Made by a program: the position numbers and the translations under genes. From a virus (Duplodnaviria > Caudoviricetes), in the IMG/VR virus record IMGVR_UViG_3300044580_000271, positions 1-45,938 of that record: a DNA stretch of 45,938 bases, one strand, 5' to 3'. Shown here piece after piece: positions 10,145 to 42,588 of this stretch. Numbering within the stretch: the stretch's first letter is position 1; every line of letters starts with the position of its first letter. The notes below the pieces were generated by a model. That model searched no databases and was not told the DNA's origin. It was given only the letters and a program-made list of their open reading frames with translations.

Positions 10145-10306
10145 TTAAAAATGATTTAAATGTTCGTAATTTTTTGTGAAATTTTTGTCTTCGTCTAGAA
10201 TGCCAGCGTTAATAAGAGTATTGAGAGCTTCTTTTTTAGAAGTTCTCTTCTTTTTTGCTAATTTTTTTAACAAAACAATATCTTTATTTTTATTGCAATT
10301 CTTCAT
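10145..10306 (-). CDS. Small basic hypothetical protein (53 aa)
   Basis: Read manually: MKNCNKNKDIVLLKKLAKKKRTSKKEALNTLINAGILDEDKNF...; overlaps the upstream stop. Confidence 0.5.
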   Translation of the reverse strand: MKNCNKNKDIVLLKKLAKKKRTSKKEALNTLINAGILDEDKNFTKNYEHLNHF

Positions 10307-11327
10307 CAGAGAGAGTGGTCATGTCATCAAACTGAGAAAAGTTGTTAATTTTAGAAAAGTATTTGTTATTTCGTAGTTCTTCTTGTTTAGATGGGCACAT
10401 TTCATGAATCTTCTTGACTCTCATATGCTCTTTGACCATCTCATAAACTTCTTTCCAATCTGCTCCAATAGATTGAATCCAATCTTTATGTTTTTCAACT
10501 AACTTAGCAGAAACAAACTCATGACCATGTGCGGGCCAAGCCCCTGGCTTTGTAAAAGACTGTTTAGTAACATCAGCTTTTCCTAAATCATGAAATAAAG
10601 CGGCGACAGCATTATTCATGCCTCCCGTTTTACGGGCTCTATTGTAAACTATAGTAATATGTTTCAATACGTCACCTTCTGGATGCCAATAGGCACTTTG
10701 GGGGGTATTGCCACAACGTCTTAAATAGTCTTGTATTTCTTTTGGAGAGGCTTTTGATATTTCTTCAAATGTTGGTATGTAATTCATTGATTGTAAATTT
10801 TCTTTTACTATTCTTAAATTGGAAACTAACTCAAATCTTATATCTAAATGTGGATTTTTTCTTTTGGCTCTATTTATTATTGGCAAATAAGCATTTGTTA
10901 TTTCTTGTTCAGTAAATTCATTTCTGTATTCATCTAAAACTAAATTACTTTCTCCCATTCCTATCATATCAGTATTTCCAACTCTTTGAATACTAATAAA
11001 TTCAGTAGGTAATTTATGAATCCATCTATGGGGTACTGTAACTAAATTTTGAAATTGTAATGAATCTAAAATAGTTTGATGAATACAATTTGCTTTTATT
11101 GATAAATAAACATTTCCTTTTTTGTCTATAATTCCTCTTACATCCGGGGCGATATTACTTAAAGATGAAGGATTTACAATGACCTTAGCTTTTTCATTAA
11201 TGTCTATAATCTTATCTCTATTTTGAGCAATTTCATATTCTTGATTAAACTCATCAAATTCATCAGGAATATAAAATCTTTTAGAAGCATAAACATCACC
11301 TATGCCTTCTCTAACAATTTTAGTCAT
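10290..11327 (-). CDS. Two-domain protein with C-terminal HD phosphohydrolase (type found with CCA-adding enzymes)
   Basis: Q..YWHPEGDVLKH...ALFHDLGK...HGHE...HM motifs. Confidence 0.75.
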   Translation of the reverse strand: MTKIVREGIGDVYASKRFYIPDEFDEFNQEYEIAQNRDKIIDINEKAKVIVNPSSLSNIAPDVRGIIDKKGNVYLSIKANCIHQTILDSLQFQNLVTVPHRWIHKLPTEFISIQRVGNTDMIGMGESNLVLDEYRNEFTEQEITNAYLPIINRAKRKNPHLDIRFELVSNLRIVKENLQSMNYIPTFEEISKASPKEIQDYLRRCGNTPQSAYWHPEGDVLKHITIVYNRARKTGGMNNAVAALFHDLGKADVTKQSFTKPGAWPAHGHEFVSAKLVEKHKDWIQSIGADWKEVYEMVKEHMRVKKIHEMCPSKQEELRNNKYFSKINNFSQFDDMTTLSDEELQ

Positions 11328-11397
11328 TGAATAAACTTTTATTTATTTATTCAATAAAAATGGCGCTCAAGATTTTCGTTTCTTACTATTAAATCTG

Positions 11398-11529
11398 TTA
11401 ATTATAAAGCTGATCCGGATCACTTAATGGAAGAGCTTCACGTAAAATCATTAAACTTCCACGATGAACGTACTTATCAAAATGAAGTTCAGTATTATCT
11501 TTTTCCAAATGAATCTTTGTTTCTGACAT
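11398..11529 (-). CDS. Small hypothetical protein (43 aa, possibly frameshifted)
   Basis: MSETKIHLEKDNTELHFDKYVHRGSLMILREALP...; coding-like sequence continues in another frame to ~11351. Confidence 0.35.
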   Translation of the reverse strand: MSETKIHLEKDNTELHFDKYVHRGSLMILREALPLSDPDQLYN

Positions 11530-11992
11530 AATTATTTAGTATTCGTAAGACTTCTGCATTTGGTAAAATGTGTTTATTGTTTATTTTGAAATACTCTTTA
11601 TCTCCTCTTAAGTAATCTAAGGCAAATTGCCCAATTGCCCCACTCCTGCTTATTCCAGCTGCACAATGTACCAATAGAACTTTTACATCTTTATTGTTAT
11701 CAAGAAAATTAACTACGCGTTTTGCATCTTCTTCAGTAAAAGCTCTAGTTTTCCCTGAATTTGTTGGGGAAATTTCTAAATCGTTTTTAACATCATCGAA
11801 AAAAAGATTGAGTACATTATGGTGAGGCTGGGTAAATAAAGGTGTGTGATAATAATTTCCTTCAGTATCATTGATGCAAATAAATGCATAATTTATTATA
11901 GCATCAACAGAATCATCGTTGATGTTATTTCTTTCTAATACTTCCTGAAATTGAACTTTTGGAAACACGTAAATTTTTACTTTCTCATCCAT
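11495..11992 (-). CDS. Cys-dependent (PTP/dual-specificity) phosphatase
   Basis: HCAAGISRS CX5R P-loop; upstream FDD general-acid motif. Confidence 0.85.
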   Translation of the reverse strand: MDEKVKIYVFPKVQFQEVLERNNINDDSVDAIINYAFICINDTEGNYYHTPLFTQPHHNVLNLFFDDVKNDLEISPTNSGKTRAFTEEDAKRVVNFLDNNKDVKVLLVHCAAGISRSGAIGQFALDYLRGDKEYFKINNKHILPNAEVLRILNNYVRNKDSFGKR

Positions 11993-11995
11993 AAA

Positions 11996-13156
11996 TTATG
12001 TTTTATATTTTTCAACTATTTCTTTTGCTTTATTTAATCTGTAGGTTTTTTCTAAAATAAATTGAACTTTTTTAGTCTTGTATTTATTCTTATCATCGAT
12101 ATAAGCTCTCATGAAATCGAAATAAGGTTCTTTATGACAATTAGTTGCAAATTTAGCAAAATCACCATTGAATTCTGTTAAAAATCTGTTAAAAAGAGCT
12201 TCAACCTTTGAATCAATATGTGATGCATAATTATCAATAGCTTTGGTAACCATATTGATAAAATCAAAAGCATCTTTATCTTCTATTGGATTTAATTGAG
12301 ATACTAAATCATCCAATGTTTCCCTGTAGTAATTCTCAATGACATAATCTTCTCTAAATACGTTCATAGTTCTTAAACCATGAACAGTAAAGTACCACTG
12401 AGTCTTGACCTTCAACAACATACCGTCATCAAAAATAACTACCCACCCCTCTTTATCTTCCTCTACCTTTGATTTTTCAATCAATTGATCAAGAGTAAAT
12501 GATTCGTTTTTAATAAAGTACATGGTAGTTGGAATATTGCTTACTTCTGAAGCAGGGATATAGTCACCATTACTATTATTTCTCAATCCAATGAATCTAA
12601 GTTCTGGACTTCCATATTTAAGTACAATTCTATTAGCATAGGAAACATATTCGAAGAGAGGAGTAAATCCATCTTCAAGTTGTTTTTTAACCCATTTTGT
12701 GTGGTCTTCCCATGCAAACAATAATTGCTGTGATGATATTACTTGTTCATTATCAAATCCTCGTATAGTTTTGGCAAATAATTTTCCGTTTGGTAACATC
12801 ATAAATGCAACCAATGAACCATCTTCCTTTGAAGAAATATGCACAATATTCTTATCTTTAACTTTATCATACTGAGTTTCCTCTATCTGATTTATGTTAA
12901 AGAATTTAGGAAGCATTAAATATCGATTGAAAATAGTTCCATCTTCATTGAATACAAACGTAACTCCTCTCATATCGAAAGCAGTGATATTTGGTTCATT
13001 TGGAAGTGGGTTTGCAAAATGGTTATAGCCACATATAAAGTAATCAAATGCTGAAATTTTGTAGTTGTCTATTCTCCACATATGTTCAGAAAAATTGAAG
13101 TTGTTGTAATACTTGCAAATCTTCTGTGCGTCATTATATGTGACTAAATACTTCAT
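11996..13156 (-). CDS. T4 Rnl1-family RNA ligase
   Basis: RGxxF, KFFN, motif I KEDGS, FEY...NRIV, EGWV, KVK motifs. Confidence 0.85.
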   Translation of the reverse strand: MKYLVTYNDAQKICKYYNNFNFSEHMWRIDNYKISAFDYFICGYNHFANPLPNEPNITAFDMRGVTFVFNEDGTIFNRYLMLPKFFNINQIEETQYDKVKDKNIVHISSKEDGSLVAFMMLPNGKLFAKTIRGFDNEQVISSQQLLFAWEDHTKWVKKQLEDGFTPLFEYVSYANRIVLKYGSPELRFIGLRNNSNGDYIPASEVSNIPTTMYFIKNESFTLDQLIEKSKVEEDKEGWVVIFDDGMLLKVKTQWYFTVHGLRTMNVFREDYVIENYYRETLDDLVSQLNPIEDKDAFDFINMVTKAIDNYASHIDSKVEALFNRFLTEFNGDFAKFATNCHKEPYFDFMRAYIDDKNKYKTKKVQFILEKTYRLNKAKEIVEKYKT

Positions 13157-15448: not shown

Positions 15449-15498
15449 CGAAAACTTTTAAAAATAAAGAATATATAATTTAATTAAAATAATTTTTA

Positions 15499-15600
15499 AT
15501 GGAAAAACAATTGTTAGGCATATGGTATTTTCAAAGCGCGCCAATTGGGCGTGATACATCACTTATGTGTAATGAGAGAGTGCAATTTCGACAGCGATAG
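15499..15600 (+). CDS. Putative attenuator leader peptide MEKQLLGIWYFQSAPIGRDTSLMCNERVQFRQR
   Basis: 33-codon ORF between a promoter-like motif and a terminator; contains a segment complementary to the terminator 5' arm. Confidence 0.55.
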   Translation: MEKQLLGIWYFQSAPIGRDTSLMCNERVQFRQR

Positions 15601-15623
15601 ATAACTATTAAGAACGATATATA

Positions 15624-15652
15624 GGGCCTCTCTTAATAGGGAGGCCTTTTTT
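15624..15652 (+). terminator. Intrinsic terminator upstream of the YkuK-like gene (attenuator)
   Basis: ggcctctc-ttaata-gggaggcc followed by a T-run. Confidence 0.8.
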
Positions 15653-15675
15653 ATTTTAACAAATTTAATTTTAAG

Positions 15676-16182
15676 ATGATGGCAGAAAAGAAGTTAATGT
15701 TCTACAAGATTGATGGAACAAAGATTGAAGATGTAAATCAGTATGTTAAGGACTGGATTGCACAGTACCCACACTCAGAAATTACAGTTGGATGTGACTC
15801 ACAGGCGTATGCTAGATACGTAAAGTACTCAGTTGTAATTGTTATGCACATATTCTACGAATCAAAGGAAACAAATCCAGACAGAGTAGGACATGGAGCA
15901 CATGTTATTTCTGCAACTATTATAGATAGAAGTAAGGGTCTAAAGTCTGATATTTACACTAAGCTATGGGCTGAAGCTATGTACACAGTAGAAGCAGCTC
16001 AAATGCTTGACGGATGTGATAAGAAAATTAAGATTCACCTTGACTACAACAGTAAGGAAGAAGCATACTCAAATGTTCTATATGCTTCCGGTATAGGATT
16101 TATTAAGGGTATGGGATATGAAGCTTGTGGTAAGCCATACGCTTGGGCAAGTTCAAATGTTGCAGACCACTTATGTCGTTAA
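15676..16182 (+). CDS. RNase H-like YkuK/DUF458-family protein
   Basis: VGCDSQ, KLWAEA, IHLDYN, KPYAWASSNVADH motifs. Confidence 0.75.
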   Translation: MMAEKKLMFYKIDGTKIEDVNQYVKDWIAQYPHSEITVGCDSQAYARYVKYSVVIVMHIFYESKETNPDRVGHGAHVISATIIDRSKGLKSDIYTKLWAEAMYTVEAAQMLDGCDKKIKIHLDYNSKEEAYSNVLYASGIGFIKGMGYEACGKPYAWASSNVADHLCR

Positions 16183-17234: not shown

Positions 17235-17462
17235 ATGGCAACAAAGAAGATCACACATGAATTTATCGCATTACTTGTTAAGGCAAAGTGTTCGAAGACT
17301 GAAAAGGAATTTACTGTACCAGTGGGACAGTGGGATATTTATTCACATGAACAGGAATGCGAAATTTGTGGTTCTCATGGAGAAATGATAGTTGATATTC
17401 ATTGCCCAGAATGTGGTCAGACTCATTCACATGTTTTAAAAAGATGGAGAAATGACAGTTGA
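17235..17462 (+). CDS. Small zinc-ribbon protein
   Basis: CEICG and CPECG motifs. Confidence 0.6.
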   Translation: MATKKITHEFIALLVKAKCSKTEKEFTVPVGQWDIYSHEQECEICGSHGEMIVDIHCPECGQTHSHVLKRWRNDS

Positions 17463-17510
17463 TATTCATTGCCCAGAATGTGGTCAGACTCATTCACATG
17501 TTTTAAAAAG
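17377..17510. repeat. 67-bp tandem duplication with one mismatch
   Basis: 17377-17443 versus 17444-17510 (gata vs gaca). Confidence 0.9.
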
Positions 17511-17535
17511 TTGGTAACCCTTAATAAATACACAC

Positions 17536-17898
17536 ATGAAATTCAAAATGACAAATTTCAGCAAGAACATCAGGATTGATTTAAGTGATCGAGAAGTACA
17601 TGTTCCAAAGAAAGAAAAATTCAAAGTAGTTAGAGAAGGAGAAGAATGGAATTCTCAATCAAATATATCTATGCTTTTTGGGTTAAGTGTTTTAGTTGCT
17701 CTTATATTTATGTTTATAAGTATAGCTGCTATAAACAAAGAATGGGAGTCTGTCGGTATTTGGTGCTTAATAACGTTTTTGATGTGTGCGTTGACATTGT
17801 TTATAGGTATACTAAAATATGAGTTTAAATGGCAGACATGGATATGGGTCTTTAATACTATTTTATGGTTTTTTAATACAATTTTACACATTGGATAA
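17536..17898 (+). CDS. Membrane protein (about 3 TM)
   Basis: Three hydrophobic segments. Confidence 0.6.
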   Translation: MKFKMTNFSKNIRIDLSDREVHVPKKEKFKVVREGEEWNSQSNISMLFGLSVLVALIFMFISIAAINKEWESVGIWCLITFLMCALTLFIGILKYEFKWQTWIWVFNTILWFFNTILHIG

Positions 17899-18277
17899 GA
17901 TATTAATCATAGTAAGAGGAATTCCTGGATGTGGAAAATCGACTTTCGCAAAGCTTCTGGGCCGTGCTATTTGCACAGCTGATGATTATCTAACAAGAAA
18001 CGGAAAGTACGAATGGTCTAGAGAAAATACTGGAAAGGCCCATGCATGGTGTCAGAGAAAATGTGAAAGATTCATGAAATCAAGAATAACTCCTGTCATT
18101 GTGGCCAATACTTCTACGACTGAAAAAGAACTTCATCCTTATTATGATTTAGCTAATAAATATGGTTTTGAAGTTTTCTCTATTATTGTTGAAAATCGTC
18201 ATAACGGCATTAATGAACATAATGTTCCAGAAGAAACTCTTGAAAAAATGAGAAATCGTTTTGATATTAAATTATAA
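17891..18277 (+). CDS. P-loop polynucleotide-kinase-like protein (AAA_33)
   Basis: RGIPGCGKST Walker A, ADD, VANT, HNVP motifs; TTG start inferred. Confidence 0.8.
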   Translation: MDKILIIVRGIPGCGKSTFAKLLGRAICTADDYLTRNGKYEWSRENTGKAHAWCQRKCERFMKSRITPVIVANTSTTEKELHPYYDLANKYGFEVFSIIVENRHNGINEHNVPEETLEKMRNRFDIKL

Positions 18278-38431: not shown

Positions 38432-38480
38432 TATATTTGCACTATCTATCAAAACTTTTTGTGGGCGAGTGTATATATAA
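38432..38480 (+). promoter_or_regulatory. Tandem promoters for the RNA island
   Basis: tatatttg at 38432; aaact-N16-atatat(aa) at 38452-38480. Confidence 0.55.
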
Positions 38481-38522
38481 TAATATTAAAAATGATTTAA
38501 AAAGCGATAAAGATTTTCAAAG

Positions 38523-38621
38523 ATGATGGCAACGTATTTAACATATAGCCCCTTTAGTTTACCACAACAACTTTGTGAAGAGCTATTTTATGCTCTTAAG
38601 GAGGGAAAGTATAGTGGTTAA
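38523..38621 (+). CDS. Putative attenuator leader peptide MMATYLTYSPFSLPQQLCEELFYALKEGKYSG
   Basis: 32-codon ORF; internal aggaggg is complementary to the terminator 5' arm ccctcct. Confidence 0.55.
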   Translation: MMATYLTYSPFSLPQQLCEELFYALKEGKYSG

Positions 38622-38651
38622 GTAGGTTGTCATACTCTATATAACTTCTTC

Positions 38652-38684
38652 ACCCTCCTCACGAAAGTCTGGAGGGTTTTTTTT
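38652..38684 (+). terminator. Intrinsic terminator at the head of the tRNA island (attenuator)
   Basis: accctcc-tcacgaaagtct-ggagggt plus T-run. Confidence 0.75.
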
Positions 38685-39277: not shown

Positions 39278-39311
39278 CAATTGATGAATTAAAGGAACGA
39301 ATAAAAAATAT

Positions 39312-39382
39312 GGCGAATGGGCAGGACGGCCATGCGGGGGTCTGCAAAACCTCAGAATCCAGTTCAACTCTGGGATTCGCCT
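39312..39382 (+). tRNA. tRNA-Cys(GCA)
   Basis: ggcgaat/attcgcc acceptor; ct-GCA-aa loop. Confidence 0.85.
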
Positions 39383-39384
39383 CT

Positions 39385-39541
39385 AAACTGTAGTAATGTT
39401 AAGAGTTACTTCGTAGCTTTGGGAGCCGGTATCGCAAGATGTGGAGGTTCAAGTCCTTCTTCCCCGCACAGATATTCGCGGGGAATGGTGAAATGGTAGA
39501 CACGCCGTAAGAAAAAATACTCTAAACGAGTTTCTCAGTTT
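39385..39541 (+). ncRNA. Scaffold-A RNA carrying a circularly permuted Leu-type tRNA mimic
   Basis: aaactg/cagttt closing stem; order is variable arm, T-arm, loop-closed acceptor, D-arm. Confidence 0.75.
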
Positions 39542-39556
39542 TTATTTTATTTTTAT

Positions 39557-39632
39557 GCCGGCATAGTTCAGTAGGTAGAGCAGCTGTCTTGTAAACAGCA
39601 GGTCGGGGGTTCGAATCCGTCTGCCGGCTCCA
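39557..39632 (+). tRNA. tRNA-Thr(TGT)
   Basis: gctgt-ctTGTaa-acagc; encoded CCA. Confidence 0.92.
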
Positions 39633-39634
39633 AT

Positions 39635-39773
39635 GGGGAGAAAGTTTAAAAAAGAAAAAACACTCTAGTTGACTTTCTCATGTAAATGTAGTAATAACGA
39701 AGAGTTACTTCGAAGGTAAAACGTTAGTTTTGAAATACTAAATTTGTTGGTTCAAATCCAGCTCTCCCCGCCA
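39635..39773 (+). ncRNA. tRNA-like RNA with permuted scaffold A inserted in the D-loop; 8-nt anticodon loop
   Basis: ggggaga/tctcccc-g-cca; gttt/aaac D-stem enclosing 71 nt; intact T-arm. Confidence 0.75.
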
Positions 39774-39777
39774 AATA

Positions 39778-39854
39778 AAGTTGTAGTAATAAGAAGAGAT
39801 ACATCGTAGCTCCATAAATTACCACAAAAAACTCTTTTTTGAATTTCTCAACTT
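39778..39854 (+). ncRNA. Scaffold-A RNA, minimal copy
   Basis: aagttg-tagtaa...aagagatacatcg...actct...tttctc-aactt. Confidence 0.7.
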
Positions 39855-39858
39855 AAAC

Positions 39859-39932
39859 TGCCTTATAGCGTAATTGGCAGCGCGCAAGCCTCTGGAGCTT
39901 GGTCAGTCGGGGTTCGAGTCCCTGTAAGGCAA
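39859..39932 (+). tRNA. tRNA-Gln(CTG)
   Basis: caagc-ctCTGga-gcttg; tgcctta/taaggca acceptor. Confidence 0.9.
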
Positions 39933-40047
39933 CTGAGTGAACATTGTGGAGTTAGTGTAATGGTAGCACGCCCGGCGGGTGTCTGGGAAGACTGGTTCGA
40001 ATCCGGTACCATGATCGACACAATTGACTGTAGGGAATAGACCTACA
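39933..40047 (+). ncRNA. Scaffold-B RNA with a degenerate colinear tRNA insert
   Basis: ctgagtgaaca...tcgacac-aattgac-tgtagg-gaataga-cctaca; D-arm and T-arm inside. Confidence 0.7.
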
Positions 40048-40053
40048 AAAAAT

Positions 40054-40125
40054 TGCCCTATAGCACAATGGCCAGTGCACGGGACTTTGGATCCTGGGAT
40101 TCACGTTCGAGTCGTGGTGGGGCAG
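40054..40125 (+). tRNA. tRNA-Gln(TTG)
   Basis: cggga-ctTTGga-tcctg. Confidence 0.9.
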
Positions 40126-40251
40126 CTGAGTGAACATCGTCATTAAAGAGAGTTGAGGGTTCAAATCCCTCATATCGGTTCATAAACTGATATTAGTGTA
40201 ACGGTAACATACTGCAACGATCAACACGATTGACAGCAGGGAAAGACCTGC
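40126..40251 (+). ncRNA. Scaffold-B RNA with a circularly permuted tRNA mimic
   Basis: T-arm gaggg-ttcaaat-ccctc, closed acceptor atatcggtt-cata-aactgatat, then D-arm gtgt-aacggta-acat. Confidence 0.75.
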
Positions 40252-40255
40252 AAAA

Positions 40256-40329
40256 CGGGGTATAGCACAGTTGGTAGCGCGCATGCTTTGGGAGCATGAG
40301 GTCGTCGGTTCGAGCCCGGCTACCCCCGA
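40256..40329 (+). tRNA. tRNA-Pro(TGG)
   Basis: catgc-ttTGGga-gcatg; one extra C in the 3' acceptor strand. Confidence 0.88.
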
Positions 40330-40407
40330 CTGAATCAACAGCGTCAACGGGGGCCAGTTGGTGGCCCTGCGGTCCGTTCTAGATGATTGACTTCAGGGAA
40401 AGACCTG
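40330..40407 (+). ncRNA. Scaffold-B RNA, short copy
   Basis: ctgaatcaaca...gattgac-ttcagg-gaaaga-cctg; insert gggcca-gttgg-tggccc. Confidence 0.65.
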
Positions 40408-40411
40408 TAAC

Positions 40412-40493
40412 GCCCCCATAGGAGAATTGGTATATCCACCTGGCTTAGGACCAGGCGTCTATGACATTGAGAGTTCGAGTCTCTCTGGGGGCA
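40412..40493 (+). tRNA. tRNA-Leu(TAG)
   Basis: cctgg-ctTAGga-ccagg; long variable arm. Confidence 0.9.
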
Positions 40494-40500
40494 CAAATTT

Positions 40501-40541
40501 CATGGTTAACTCAAATATATAAAGTAAAAGAGTTAACCATG
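40501..40541 (+). promoter_or_regulatory. 12-bp hairpin sequestering the HNH start codon
   Basis: catggttaactc / gagttaaccatg; loop contains atatataa. Confidence 0.75.
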
Positions 40542-40967
40542 AATAAAAAAGAATTAGATAACGAAATTATTCAGGCTTGCAAAAAAAGTAGAACAATGTC
40601 TGAAGCATCAAAAATTATTGGAATTCCATATTCCACATTTAAACGAAAAACAATATTATTGGGTTTATGGAAACCAAATCAAGGAGGAAAAGGAATCGCA
40701 AATATATCACTTGAAGATGTATTTAATGGAAAAAAATATCTTAGAAGTTATCAATTAAAAAATAAATTAATTGCAGAAGGGTATAAAGAAGCAAAATGTG
40801 AAGAATGTGGATTAGGAGAAGAATGGAATGACAAAATTCTTGTACTAGAATTAGACCACATAAATGGAAATAAAAGGGATAATAGATTAGAAAATTTAAA
40901 AATATTGTGTCCAAATTGTCATTCACAAACACCAACTTTTAGAGGAAGAAAAAATGGAAATGAATAA
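40539..40967 (+). CDS. HNH homing endonuclease
   Basis: CEECG...LELDHINGNKRDNRLENLKILCPNCH; the ORF-track start overlaps tRNA-Leu, so 40539 is used. Confidence 0.9.
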   Translation: MNKKELDNEIIQACKKSRTMSEASKIIGIPYSTFKRKTILLGLWKPNQGGKGIANISLEDVFNGKKYLRSYQLKNKLIAEGYKEAKCEECGLGEEWNDKILVLELDHINGNKRDNRLENLKILCPNCHSQTPTFRGRKNGNE

Positions 40968-41129
40968 ACAATTTTTACAGTTTTTAGATTCATTAATTCA
41001 TAGTAAAAATTTTAATTTTCGATATAGATTAAAATTAAAAATTTCGACCCAAGGAAAAAATTTATGCAGCAGTATTTGATGAAAGAAGGATTAATGAACT
41101 TATAAATAATAATTTTCATGAATTGTAAT

Positions 41130-41202
41130 GCTCGGTTCGTCTAGTGGTCAGGACATCAGGTTTTCATCCTGGGGATCAGGGGTTCGACCCCCCTACCGAG
41201 TA
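41130..41202 (+). tRNA. tRNA-Glu(TTC)
   Basis: tcagg-ttTTCat-cctgg. Confidence 0.9.
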
Positions 41203-41207
41203 CAAAT

Positions 41208-41289
41208 GTTGCGTTATACAAGCGGCCAAAGTGGTCAGACCTTCAATCTGATTCGTAATGATTCGCGGGTTCGAATCCCGCACGCAATA
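41208..41289 (+). tRNA. Atypical long-variable-arm tRNA, anticodon TTC, C33; identity uncertain
   Basis: gttgcgt/acgcaat acceptor; tcaga-ccTTCaa-tctga; extended variable region. Confidence 0.65.
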
Positions 41290-41290
41290 C

Positions 41291-41377
41291 GTCCAAATGG
41301 TGGAATTGGTAGACACGCTAGCTTGAGGGGCTAGTGCCATAACAGGTTTGGGGGTTCGAGTCCCCCTTTGGACACCA
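41291..41377 (+). tRNA. tRNA-Leu(GAG)
   Basis: ctagc-ttGAGgg-gctag; encoded CCA. Confidence 0.92.
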
Positions 41378-41380
41378 AAT

Positions 41381-41461
41381 GCCGACGTTGAGCAATTGGC
41401 TGGCTCGCCTGACTGTAGATCAGGTCCTTCGGGCGTAGGGGTTCGAGTCCCTTCGGCGGCA
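41381..41461 (+). tRNA. tRNA-Tyr(GTA), variant with G37
   Basis: cctga-ctGTAga-tcagg; one A.G mismatch in the acceptor. Confidence 0.8.
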
Positions 41462-41581
41462 CAAAAGGTTAGTAATTCGGACGCCTAACCAGCAGAAGGA
41501 TGAAGTTTCCTTGGCGAAATTGATCGAAACAGTCTTGGTGGTTCTTGTACATGTCGTGATAAAGTGACCAAAAACTATAAC

Positions 41582-41654
41582 GGAGTCTTGGCAGAGTTGG
41601 TCAACGCGCTGGACTGAAAATCCAGAGATCCAGGTTCGATCCCAGGAGGCTCCA
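41582..41654 (+). tRNA. tRNA-Phe(GAA)
   Basis: ctgga-ctGAAaa-tccag. Confidence 0.88.
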
Positions 41655-41741
41655 CAAAAAATTTTCAAAAATATTTTTTTATTTGAAAACTTTTGATTAC
41701 ATTAGCCTTAGAATAAAAAACAGTTCTTTGATAAAGATACT

Positions 41742-42036
41742 TGGCTTAATCAGGCGCCCGTAGGGCGTATGGTCGTCGATTACCGAACCTCGGTTTACGA
41801 TCAATGATAATGAGAGTTGTAGTTCAAGAATGTAGCGTAAAGTTACTGCAGACTGCAATAGAAATTAGCCTGGTAGGAAATCCTCGGATTCCTATTAATC
41901 TCAATAGTAAGAGGACGTGAGAGATTATTAAGTCATTTACAGATTGGGGAATAGGTAGAGTGGTCTTCGACCGGTGGTAACTTGCAAGACCTGACTTTAG
42001 AAAACCGGCATGGGCGCGGGTGGCCCAACCCAATCT
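41742..42036 (+). ncRNA. Unassigned ~295-nt multi-hairpin RNA
   Basis: Closing stems tggcttaat/attaagtca and agattggg/cccaatct; many internal hairpins; own promoter-like site and boxA-like site upstream. Confidence 0.6.
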
Positions 42037-42039
42037 AAC

Positions 42040-42127
42040 GGGGCGATACCGAAGTGGCCAAACGGGCCCTGCCGTAAACAGGGTGGCTCTACGGAGTCTT
42101 CGATGGTTCGAATCCATTCTCACCCCA
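42040..42127 (+). tRNA. tRNA-Tyr(GTA), variant with C33
   Basis: ccctg-ccGTAaa-caggg; long variable arm; C.A mismatch in the acceptor. Confidence 0.8.
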
Positions 42128-42151
42128 CAAAAGATGTTCTTTGAAAATACT

Positions 42152-42456
42152 TGATTCAGCTAGGAGTGACCAAAATTTAGATTAAATTAGAATTAATTAG
42201 TAAATGATGAAGAGGTTAAATTCCTCAAAAACAGACGGTTCGATTCCGTCGGCGGCTTTACCGTTAAAGGATGTAATATTAGATAATAATATGATAAAAA
42301 CGGTCCTATTAGGTCTATGCTTAAATGAAACTCCTTTAGGGTTCTAGATACCTAACACTTTCTCTAAGATTGTATGCCTTCGGGCTGGATGGAGAGAATG
42401 GATCAAAAGTGGCTGATGTCATTTAGTTGTGCTAGGATTCGCGATCTTAGCACAAC
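42152..42456 (+). ncRNA. Unassigned ~300-nt structured RNA with an internal T-arm
   Basis: tcagcta/tggctga closing stem; gacgg-ttcgatt-ccgtc; 13-bp terminal hairpin at 42426-42456. Confidence 0.5.
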
Positions 42457-42460
42457 AATC

Positions 42461-42543
42461 GGGAAGGTACCGAAGCGGTCAACCGGGACAGACTGTAAAT
42501 CTGTTGGCTTAGGCCTTCGTAGGTTCGAATCCTGCCCTTCCCA
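42461..42543 (+). tRNA. tRNA-Tyr(GTA), canonical
   Basis: acaga-ctGTAaa-tctgt; gggaagg/ccttccc acceptor. Confidence 0.92.
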
Positions 42544-42588
42544 CCTCACTTTTTGTACCTTGAACATAGATATATAAAATAAAAATCT

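Follow-up and report, generated by a model that had tools for sequence, protein, structure and literature searches.

A probable ribosome-lag attenuator conserved ahead of the RNase H-like gene ykuK in two phage clades

In the phage genome studied here, a promoter-like motif, a leader ORF, an intrinsic terminator and the RNase H-like gene ykuK probably form a conserved unit in which ykuK is controlled by a general attenuator that responds to lagging ribosomes. We put the probability of this reading at about 0.65. The window, that is the whole stretch of DNA analysed, is an entire linear virus record of 45.9 kb with a completeness estimate of 11%. The host likely belongs to the Bacteroidota, as suggested by the start codons (a Shine-Dalgarno (SD)-like motif precedes 0 of the 52 ORFs in the window) and by a sequence near 38432 that presumably follows a promoter consensus of that phylum. 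The unit consists of the following elements:

15471..15478, + strand: promoter-like motif ATATATAA, 20 nt 5' of the leader start
15499..15600, + strand: leader ORF of 33 codons, with conserved start, frame and stop
15525..15532, + strand: candidate anti-antiterminator, predicted by folding to pair with 15576-15583 in shorter transcripts, in the window phage only
15537..15570, + strand: GC-rich hairpins of the leader 5' domain, from folding, with a possible role as pause or insulator
15573..15590, + strand: putative antiterminator 5' strand (purine run plus UUCG) in codons 25-31, from folding and the cognate-pair test
15616..15624, + strand: inner variant of the promoter motif, by motif likeness a possible bypass promoter
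15623..15652, + strand: intrinsic terminator (hairpin plus U tract), 22 nt 3' of the leader stop
15676..16182, + strand: ykuK (DUF458), an RNase H-like gene by profile match and invariant acidic residues
16188..16214, + strand: terminator-like hairpin 3' of ykuK, a sequence feature

As a terminator-like hairpin follows ykuK, the unit is predicted to contain this single gene. Transcription probably starts past the ATATATAA motif, and the conservation of start, frame and stop suggests that the leader is translated. A ribosome that gets to about codon 22 or further soon enough would cover the purine strand in codons 25-31, upon which the terminator is predicted to fold and the transcript to end. 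If the ribosome stalls within codons ~2-21 or never starts, the purine strand would take the spacer and the 5' arm of the terminator first. With the 5' arm held in this pairing, which covaries, the polymerase would read through into ykuK. The model assumes coupling between the phage polymerase and the host ribosome. Cleaved or uncharged tRNAs, drugs and damaged ribosomes would be inducers alike: the leader has no run of a single residue and its sensing stretch holds 15 kinds of amino acid, so all such stresses would induce.

To place the unit among its relatives, we collected loci from 16 viral sequences, the best 80 of 123 metagenome matches and the window. These 97 rows yielded 65 non-redundant loci and 24 near-duplicates, and 8 with <200 nt upstream were dropped. 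For 64 YkuK proteins (L014, a fragment, was left out), a quick tree was built and labelled partly by hand. The sequence-only reading had called for a search for similar leaders upstream of ykuK in other phages, and a conserved leader and terminator were indeed found. Among the matches listed, the clade of the window's YkuK has a short leader with a terminator in 9 of 14 rows and lacks it in five, and its sister clade has a long leader (56-66 codons) with a terminator in 18 of 21 rows, two of these 18 terminators having been assigned by hand. The short leader keeps its start, frame and stop in nine non-redundant loci, of which eight have 32-34 codons and one has 22. Homologues differ by synonymous changes, including two multi-base ones; peptide identity drops to 19-34%, and all length changes are in-frame. 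Between short and long leaders, homology was not detected at the protein level (probability 0.2%); the 56-66-codon leader of the sister clade is an unrelated ORF of ordinary composition. A strong hairpin with a T run precedes ykuK in 30/65 phage-type loci versus 4/78 Bacteroidota chromosomal loci (P=6e-9; one automatic rule, search windows of 110 and 130 nt), the chromosomal set being the 78 usable among 120 of ~1500 matches; 74 of these 78 copies are thus without a strong upstream terminator. Pattern scans for the leader in the DNA of viral contigs gave 14, 51 and 26 matches, of which L001, L002 and L004 were recognisable, and no convincing leader copy away from ykuK. An alignment search of genome contigs with YkuK gave no confirmed relative.

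The long leaders belong to the basic GFYDGRF family of 49-66 residues, encoded directly 5' of ykuK (L055:2819-2968, L003:1736-1924 and ~20 related ORFs). In outlying phages the family is encoded by an ordinary coupled gene, and in one clade it takes the place of the attenuator leader, some of these leaders being decayed (L073, L098, L100, L102). Its nearest named ESM Atlas cluster is ArfA (0.89, with the family on 23% of members); we found no Pfam or NCBIfam match to it, and no solved ArfA chain at E<=10. In three further loci (L006, L054, L063), the end of a different ORF, with a terminal PWNKG, lies at the leader position; we take this motif to be typical of homing-endonuclease repeats. Both L054 and L063 retain the terminator, and the upstream duplex of L063 is strong (P=0.023).

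A conserved attenuator with an antiterminator that covaries with the terminator is well supported. What a uORF attenuator is expected to display in its sequence is present here: a conserved short ORF, an intrinsic terminator and, at the level of the family, a covarying antiterminator. The terminator proposed from the sequence alone comprises 11 pairs at 15623-15648, followed by a T run, and the proposed pairing of 15573-15580 with 15628-15635 can form (GAGAG/CUCUC, two G-U pairs included). Across 10 aligned leaders, both sides change at 4 of 9 pairs of the terminator consensus. The switch was modelled on transcripts that ended at the terminator loop, with a ribosome footprint of 28 nt. In the truncated window transcript, 15573-15590 pairs with 15615-15617 and 15626-15635. 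In all ten short leaders, the terminator 5' arm is held by the final third of the ORF as long as the ribosome is absent or no further than ~codon 21. This pairing falls once the modelled ribosome stands at ~codon 21-25 (15 in L047), to 0.4-0.5 in the window and to near 0 in most other leaders. In the full-length window transcript, the terminator is favoured at every ribosome position, with a margin of 6-10 kcal/mol as far as codon 21 and of 11.5-13.4 kcal/mol thereafter, a step of ~4 at codon 22-23. As the terminator wins everywhere at full length, the switch must be kinetic, and it may be partial.

The covariation was assessed by pairing the 3' end of each leader with its own and with permuted terminator arms. 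In 24 leaders (8 short and 16 long, after removal of three near-duplicates), the duplex with the own arm averaged -14.4 kcal/mol, and permuted partners gave -9.6±0.6 kcal/mol (P=1e-5). The 16 long leaders alone gave the same significance (P=1e-5); the eight short ones, whose arm is shared, did not reach significance by themselves (P=0.08). Five control terminators had no preference for their own arm (P=0.82). As related loci are not independent, the real number of covariation events is smaller than these counts. Tested one by one against shuffles, the duplex was significant (P<=0.05) in 4/9 short and 7/17 other upstream regions; it was no better than shuffles in the window itself (P=0.28) or in L002 (0.25), L033 (0.40) and L036 (0.13). 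Three other terminators of the window have no comparable upstream duplex (P=0.64-0.99).

Two further readings of the leader were considered. At the peptide level, the conserved Phe-Arg (TTT/TTC CGA) could conceivably be an arrest motif; this was set aside, as the predicted antiterminator uses the same bases for pairing with the spacer. A loop-loop kissing or purine-riboswitch-like fold was dropped, as homologues do not preserve the two-hairpin junction. A 5' hairpin domain is predicted in 7/7 leaders folded, with differing sequence, and the candidate 1:2 helix (15525-15532/15576-15583) is predicted in the window and not at the same place in distant leaders.

The leader region as a whole folds well (z=-3.8). 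It could thus also be a structured cis element or small RNA that is switched by a protein or ligand, or encode a trans-acting peptide, with translation being incidental. The divergence of the short-leader peptides would fit such a role, as would the four outlying rows in which a GFYDGRF ORF precedes ykuK without a terminator (L008, L009, L010, L055). However, Rfam covariance models run over the window matched tRNAs only, with no riboswitch or leader family at gathering score; the preserved start, frame and stop and the strictly in-frame length changes speak for translation; and the 5' folds differ by lineage while two unrelated ORF types feed one switch. We therefore consider this explanation very unlikely.

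The distance between the leader stop and the hairpin raises the question of polarity. In E. coli, a ribosome can repress terminators <27 nt from a stop codon (accessible part of PMC4824070). The spacer of 22 nt in the window lies inside this range, and the gap is 12-25 nt in 20/22 loci, within the range of partial repression reported there; in the other two, the leader ORF overlaps the hairpin. Also against induction by lag, the purine strand is exposed again when the ribosome is modelled at the stop codon. A trailing ribosome at the stop could block the terminator, as in the pyrL-pyrBI or rph-pyrE type, and ykuK would then be on in healthy translation. Such an arrangement needs no covarying antiterminator inside the ORF, though one exists, and L078, where the ORF overlaps the hairpin, still pairs its own arm best (rank 1 of 29 in both row and column). 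The opposite polarity thus seems distinctly unlikely to us, and induction by a lagging ribosome remains the preferred reading.

The motif ATATATAA has 10 copies in the window, most of them 20-30 nt 5' of start codons, and it or a one-base variant lies upstream of nearly all homologous leaders. In a close relative, similarity restarts exactly at 15471, past a replaced segment. The inner variant at 15616 opens another possibility, in which the hairpin is the plain terminator of a small-gene transcript and ykuK is driven from the inner motif. It matches a variant found at the upstream position in L057 and L094, and it is kept in L001. However, it is altered in L002 and L036 and absent from five diverged short leaders (L037, L038, L046, L047, L048), which makes it at most a local secondary promoter. 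The ykuK start lies only ~25 nt past the U tract, and a plain terminator leaves the covarying antiterminator unexplained. We regard this explanation as highly improbable; the inner motif may be a secondary promoter in the window's lineage.

We then turned to the composition of the leader. As the sequence-only reading had counted, the 33-codon ORF uses 19 amino acids, all except His, and 28 distinct codons. How unusual these counts are depends on the comparison. Among 33-codon windows of the phage's own genes, at least 19 amino acids (P=0.004) and at least 28 codons (P=0.008) are both rare; against base shuffles of the ORF the values are P=0.02 and P=0.06, and against uniform codons P=0.013 and P=0.16, respectively. 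The amino-acid count is mildly unusual, and the codon count is mostly an effect of composition. The GC-rich codons pointed out in the same reading do occur in an ORF with a higher GC content than the whole window (0.40 vs 0.33), and several of them fall within hairpin stems. No amino acid is used more than four times in the 33 codons, and codons 2-21, the sensing stretch of the model, contain 15 amino acids (P=0.07) and 19 codons (P=0.12).

The ORF had been thought to sample nearly the whole tRNA pool. This was not supported, as it contains 28 of 61 sense codons and codon diversity in the homologues is at shuffle level (P=0.24 over five lineage groups combined). A related explanation is that the leader was selected for maximal codon variety and would report the loss of any single tRNA. 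Amino-acid diversity over the same five groups, a combination that includes the leader originally picked for this trait and related lineages, gave P=0.0002 versus shuffles and P=0.0009 versus GC-matched genes. The full-length short leaders use 17-19 amino acids versus shuffle means of ~15 (7/7 above the mean), with individual P values of 0.008-0.18. Two leaders from outside the window's clade are among the more diverse (L037, P=0.028; L038, P=0.015). On the other hand, L046 and L048 are unremarkable (both P=0.18), L047 has 10 amino acids in 22 codons, eight long leaders with 15-19 amino acids are at or below the expectation for their length, and His is missing from 9/9 short leaders counted.

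A second leader in the same phage provides a contrast. It precedes the tRNA island at 38523-38621 (32 codons, within 38473-38680), and its architecture had been said to match that of the ykuK leader. The pairing between a purine strand and a terminator arm is shared, whereas the tRNA-island leader uses 13 amino acids and terminates when free of ribosomes in the model. Its predicted behaviour is that of a classical four-segment attenuator, terminated without a ribosome and antiterminated for stalls at codons 1-15. Of its 31 residues, 21 are amino acids of the downstream tRNAs found by ARAGORN (P=0.0008), whereas the ykuK leader has no such bias (15/32 residues, P=0.20). The array itself (39300-42550) contains 14 tRNAs by ARAGORN and 11 by Rfam, with more tRNA-like stretches in between, and is interrupted by an HNH ORF (40461-40967).

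A distant locus, L015, has a leader of 42 codons with all 20 amino acids (P=0.011) and 37 distinct codons in 41 (P=0.0007). Its order (L015:1667-1945) is promoter motif, leader, antiterminator/terminator, tRNA-Gln and a ykuK gene that heads a tRNA array. This locus, whose YkuK has 26% identity, was spotted post hoc as 1 of 11 distant loci, and a close relative of it was not found in viral contigs. The all-20 leader and the contrast with the tRNA-island leader favour selection for breadth. Taken together, the ykuK leader appears to be a broad sensor. The evidence that selection acted on its amino-acid breadth is modest, and there is none in this family for codon sampling of the whole pool. The breadth likely comes from mixed composition in the short leaders and from plain length in the long ones. 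Selection for maximal codon variety is, in our view, rather unlikely.

The ORF at 15676-16182 matches PF04308 (RNaseH_like) with E=2e-15 and 57 bits, versus a cut-off of 25. Four acidic residues of the RNase H1 type (D41, E100, D123, D164) are invariant in 64/64 close and 13/13 diverse sequences. The structure model of YkuK (pLDDT 88) was compared in a wide VIA search, in which the top fold matches were RNase H1 with middling scores (Z 7.0-7.6), the best being LC11-RNase H1 (Z 7.6, rmsd 3.6, 113 residues aligned). This agrees with the published placement of B. subtilis YkuK, a stand-alone RNase H-like domain with a helix-1 glutamate, in the RNase H1 clade (accessible part of PMC3985635).

The neighbours of ykuK give context to a link with translation rescue, which had been suggested for the window and gains support from them. 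In the window, an Rnl1-type RNA ligase gene lies 2.5 kb upstream of ykuK; beyond it are those of a phosphatase and an HD protein. On the downstream side, an AAA_33 kinase lies at a distance of 1.6 kb (17819-18277, + strand). The genes around ykuK resemble an RNA-repair set: HD protein, dual-specificity phosphatase and Rnl1-type ligase at 10290-13156 (- strand) and the AAA_33 kinase. Between ykuK and this kinase is a near-duplicated stretch (17235-17533), in which the end of a 75-aa ORF (17235-17462) is repeated in a 21-aa ORF (17452-17517). An RNA ligase is found within 2-3 kb of ykuK, on either side, in 36/65 listed loci as a raw count, and in 28/40 loci of at least 4 kb. The ligases come from two families, and shared descent explains part of the count. 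Distant homologues of ykuK are part of tRNA arrays in two named phages, Leptolyngbya phage Lbo-JY46 and Phaeobacter phage MD18; in the latter, the gene follows a Pth2 gene. Among 52 loci scanned, tRNA genes are near ykuK in three (L012, L013, L015), all distant homologues, and in none of the closer loci. In Vibrio phage EniLVp02 (L192:3-1193), ykuK lies two genes past an annotated RNA-binding protein with DUF7788, DUF2828 and VWA matches. The most likely role for YkuK in this context is that of a catalytically active ribonuclease of the RNase H1 fold, which serves the neighbouring RNA ligase, kinase and phosphatase set in the repair and turnover of tRNA or other RNA.

The best-known leaders of this kind, trpL, hisL, leuL and thrL, combine a leader ORF with alternative antiterminator and terminator structures and read-through induced by stalling. 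Unlike these, the ykuK leader has no run of control codons and its target is not biosynthetic; a 1:2 helix that would terminate the untranslated RNA is predicted in the window but not in distant leaders. The sequence-only reading had set the leader against classical ones that repeat one amino acid, and thereby missed a precedent, the whiB7/wblC uORF of Actinobacteria. There, too, translation of the uORF leads to a Rho-independent terminator and stalling to an antiterminator; these uORFs differ in both length and sequence, and the one of M. smegmatis encodes all amino acids except Cys (accessible part of PMC10274678). The sensor logic itself is thus already known from whiB7. The two are compared by logic alone: the whiB7 attenuator is chromosomal, Ala-enriched and controls a transcription factor with positive feedback (same source), whereas the ykuK leader is phage-borne, has 32-34 or 56-66 codons and precedes one RNase H-like gene. 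The B. subtilis vmlR leader likewise senses stalls of multiple causes through antiterminator/terminator switching and polymerase pausing; it needs an anti-antiterminator and uORF initiation (accessible part of PMC9226507), whereas an anti-antiterminator is predicted for the ykuK leader in the window's lineage only. In E. coli toiL-topAI, a uORF also senses stalling from several causes and controls a toxin-antitoxin transcript (accessible part of PMC12121999). Our searches of titles and abstracts, with subscription literature mostly outside their scope, found no published phage-encoded attenuator of this type and no published ykuK regulation or YkuK/DUF458 function; the accessible part of PMC3985635 reports no activity or regulation for B. 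subtilis YkuK/DUF458.

The start of ykuK itself may add a further layer. In the listed loci, an SD-like motif precedes 17/27 attenuated ykuK genes versus 3/220 other ORFs, a count that allowed several ATGs for ykuK and one for the other ORFs. The carriers are L003, L004, L005, L046, L047, L052 and 11 more; the ykuK gene of the window is without it. The SD may be a second check of ribosome status, because Bacteroidia ribosomes disregard an SD unless bS21 is missing (accessible part of PMC9976891). Extending this, large phages could carry sensors of translation health, in which leaders selected for a near-full amino-acid alphabet would switch on YkuK once host defences cleave tRNA or harm ribosomes. 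YkuK would then supply the ribonuclease that a phage kit for tRNA or RNA repair otherwise lacks, and in many relatives the SD check would favour altered (e.g., bS21-less) ribosomes. We offer this extension tentatively and consider it rather unlikely.

A covarying switch that would respond to ribosome lag precedes ykuK in two phage clades. Together with the RNA-ligase, tRNA-array and Pth2 context, it points to an inducing condition and a candidate substrate class for YkuK, and the leader arrangement hints at a role of this nuclease in coping with RNA damage or translation stress. If true, these phages would monitor host translation directly and use it to time a counter-defence gene, which would bear on how phages escape tRNA-cleaving defences.
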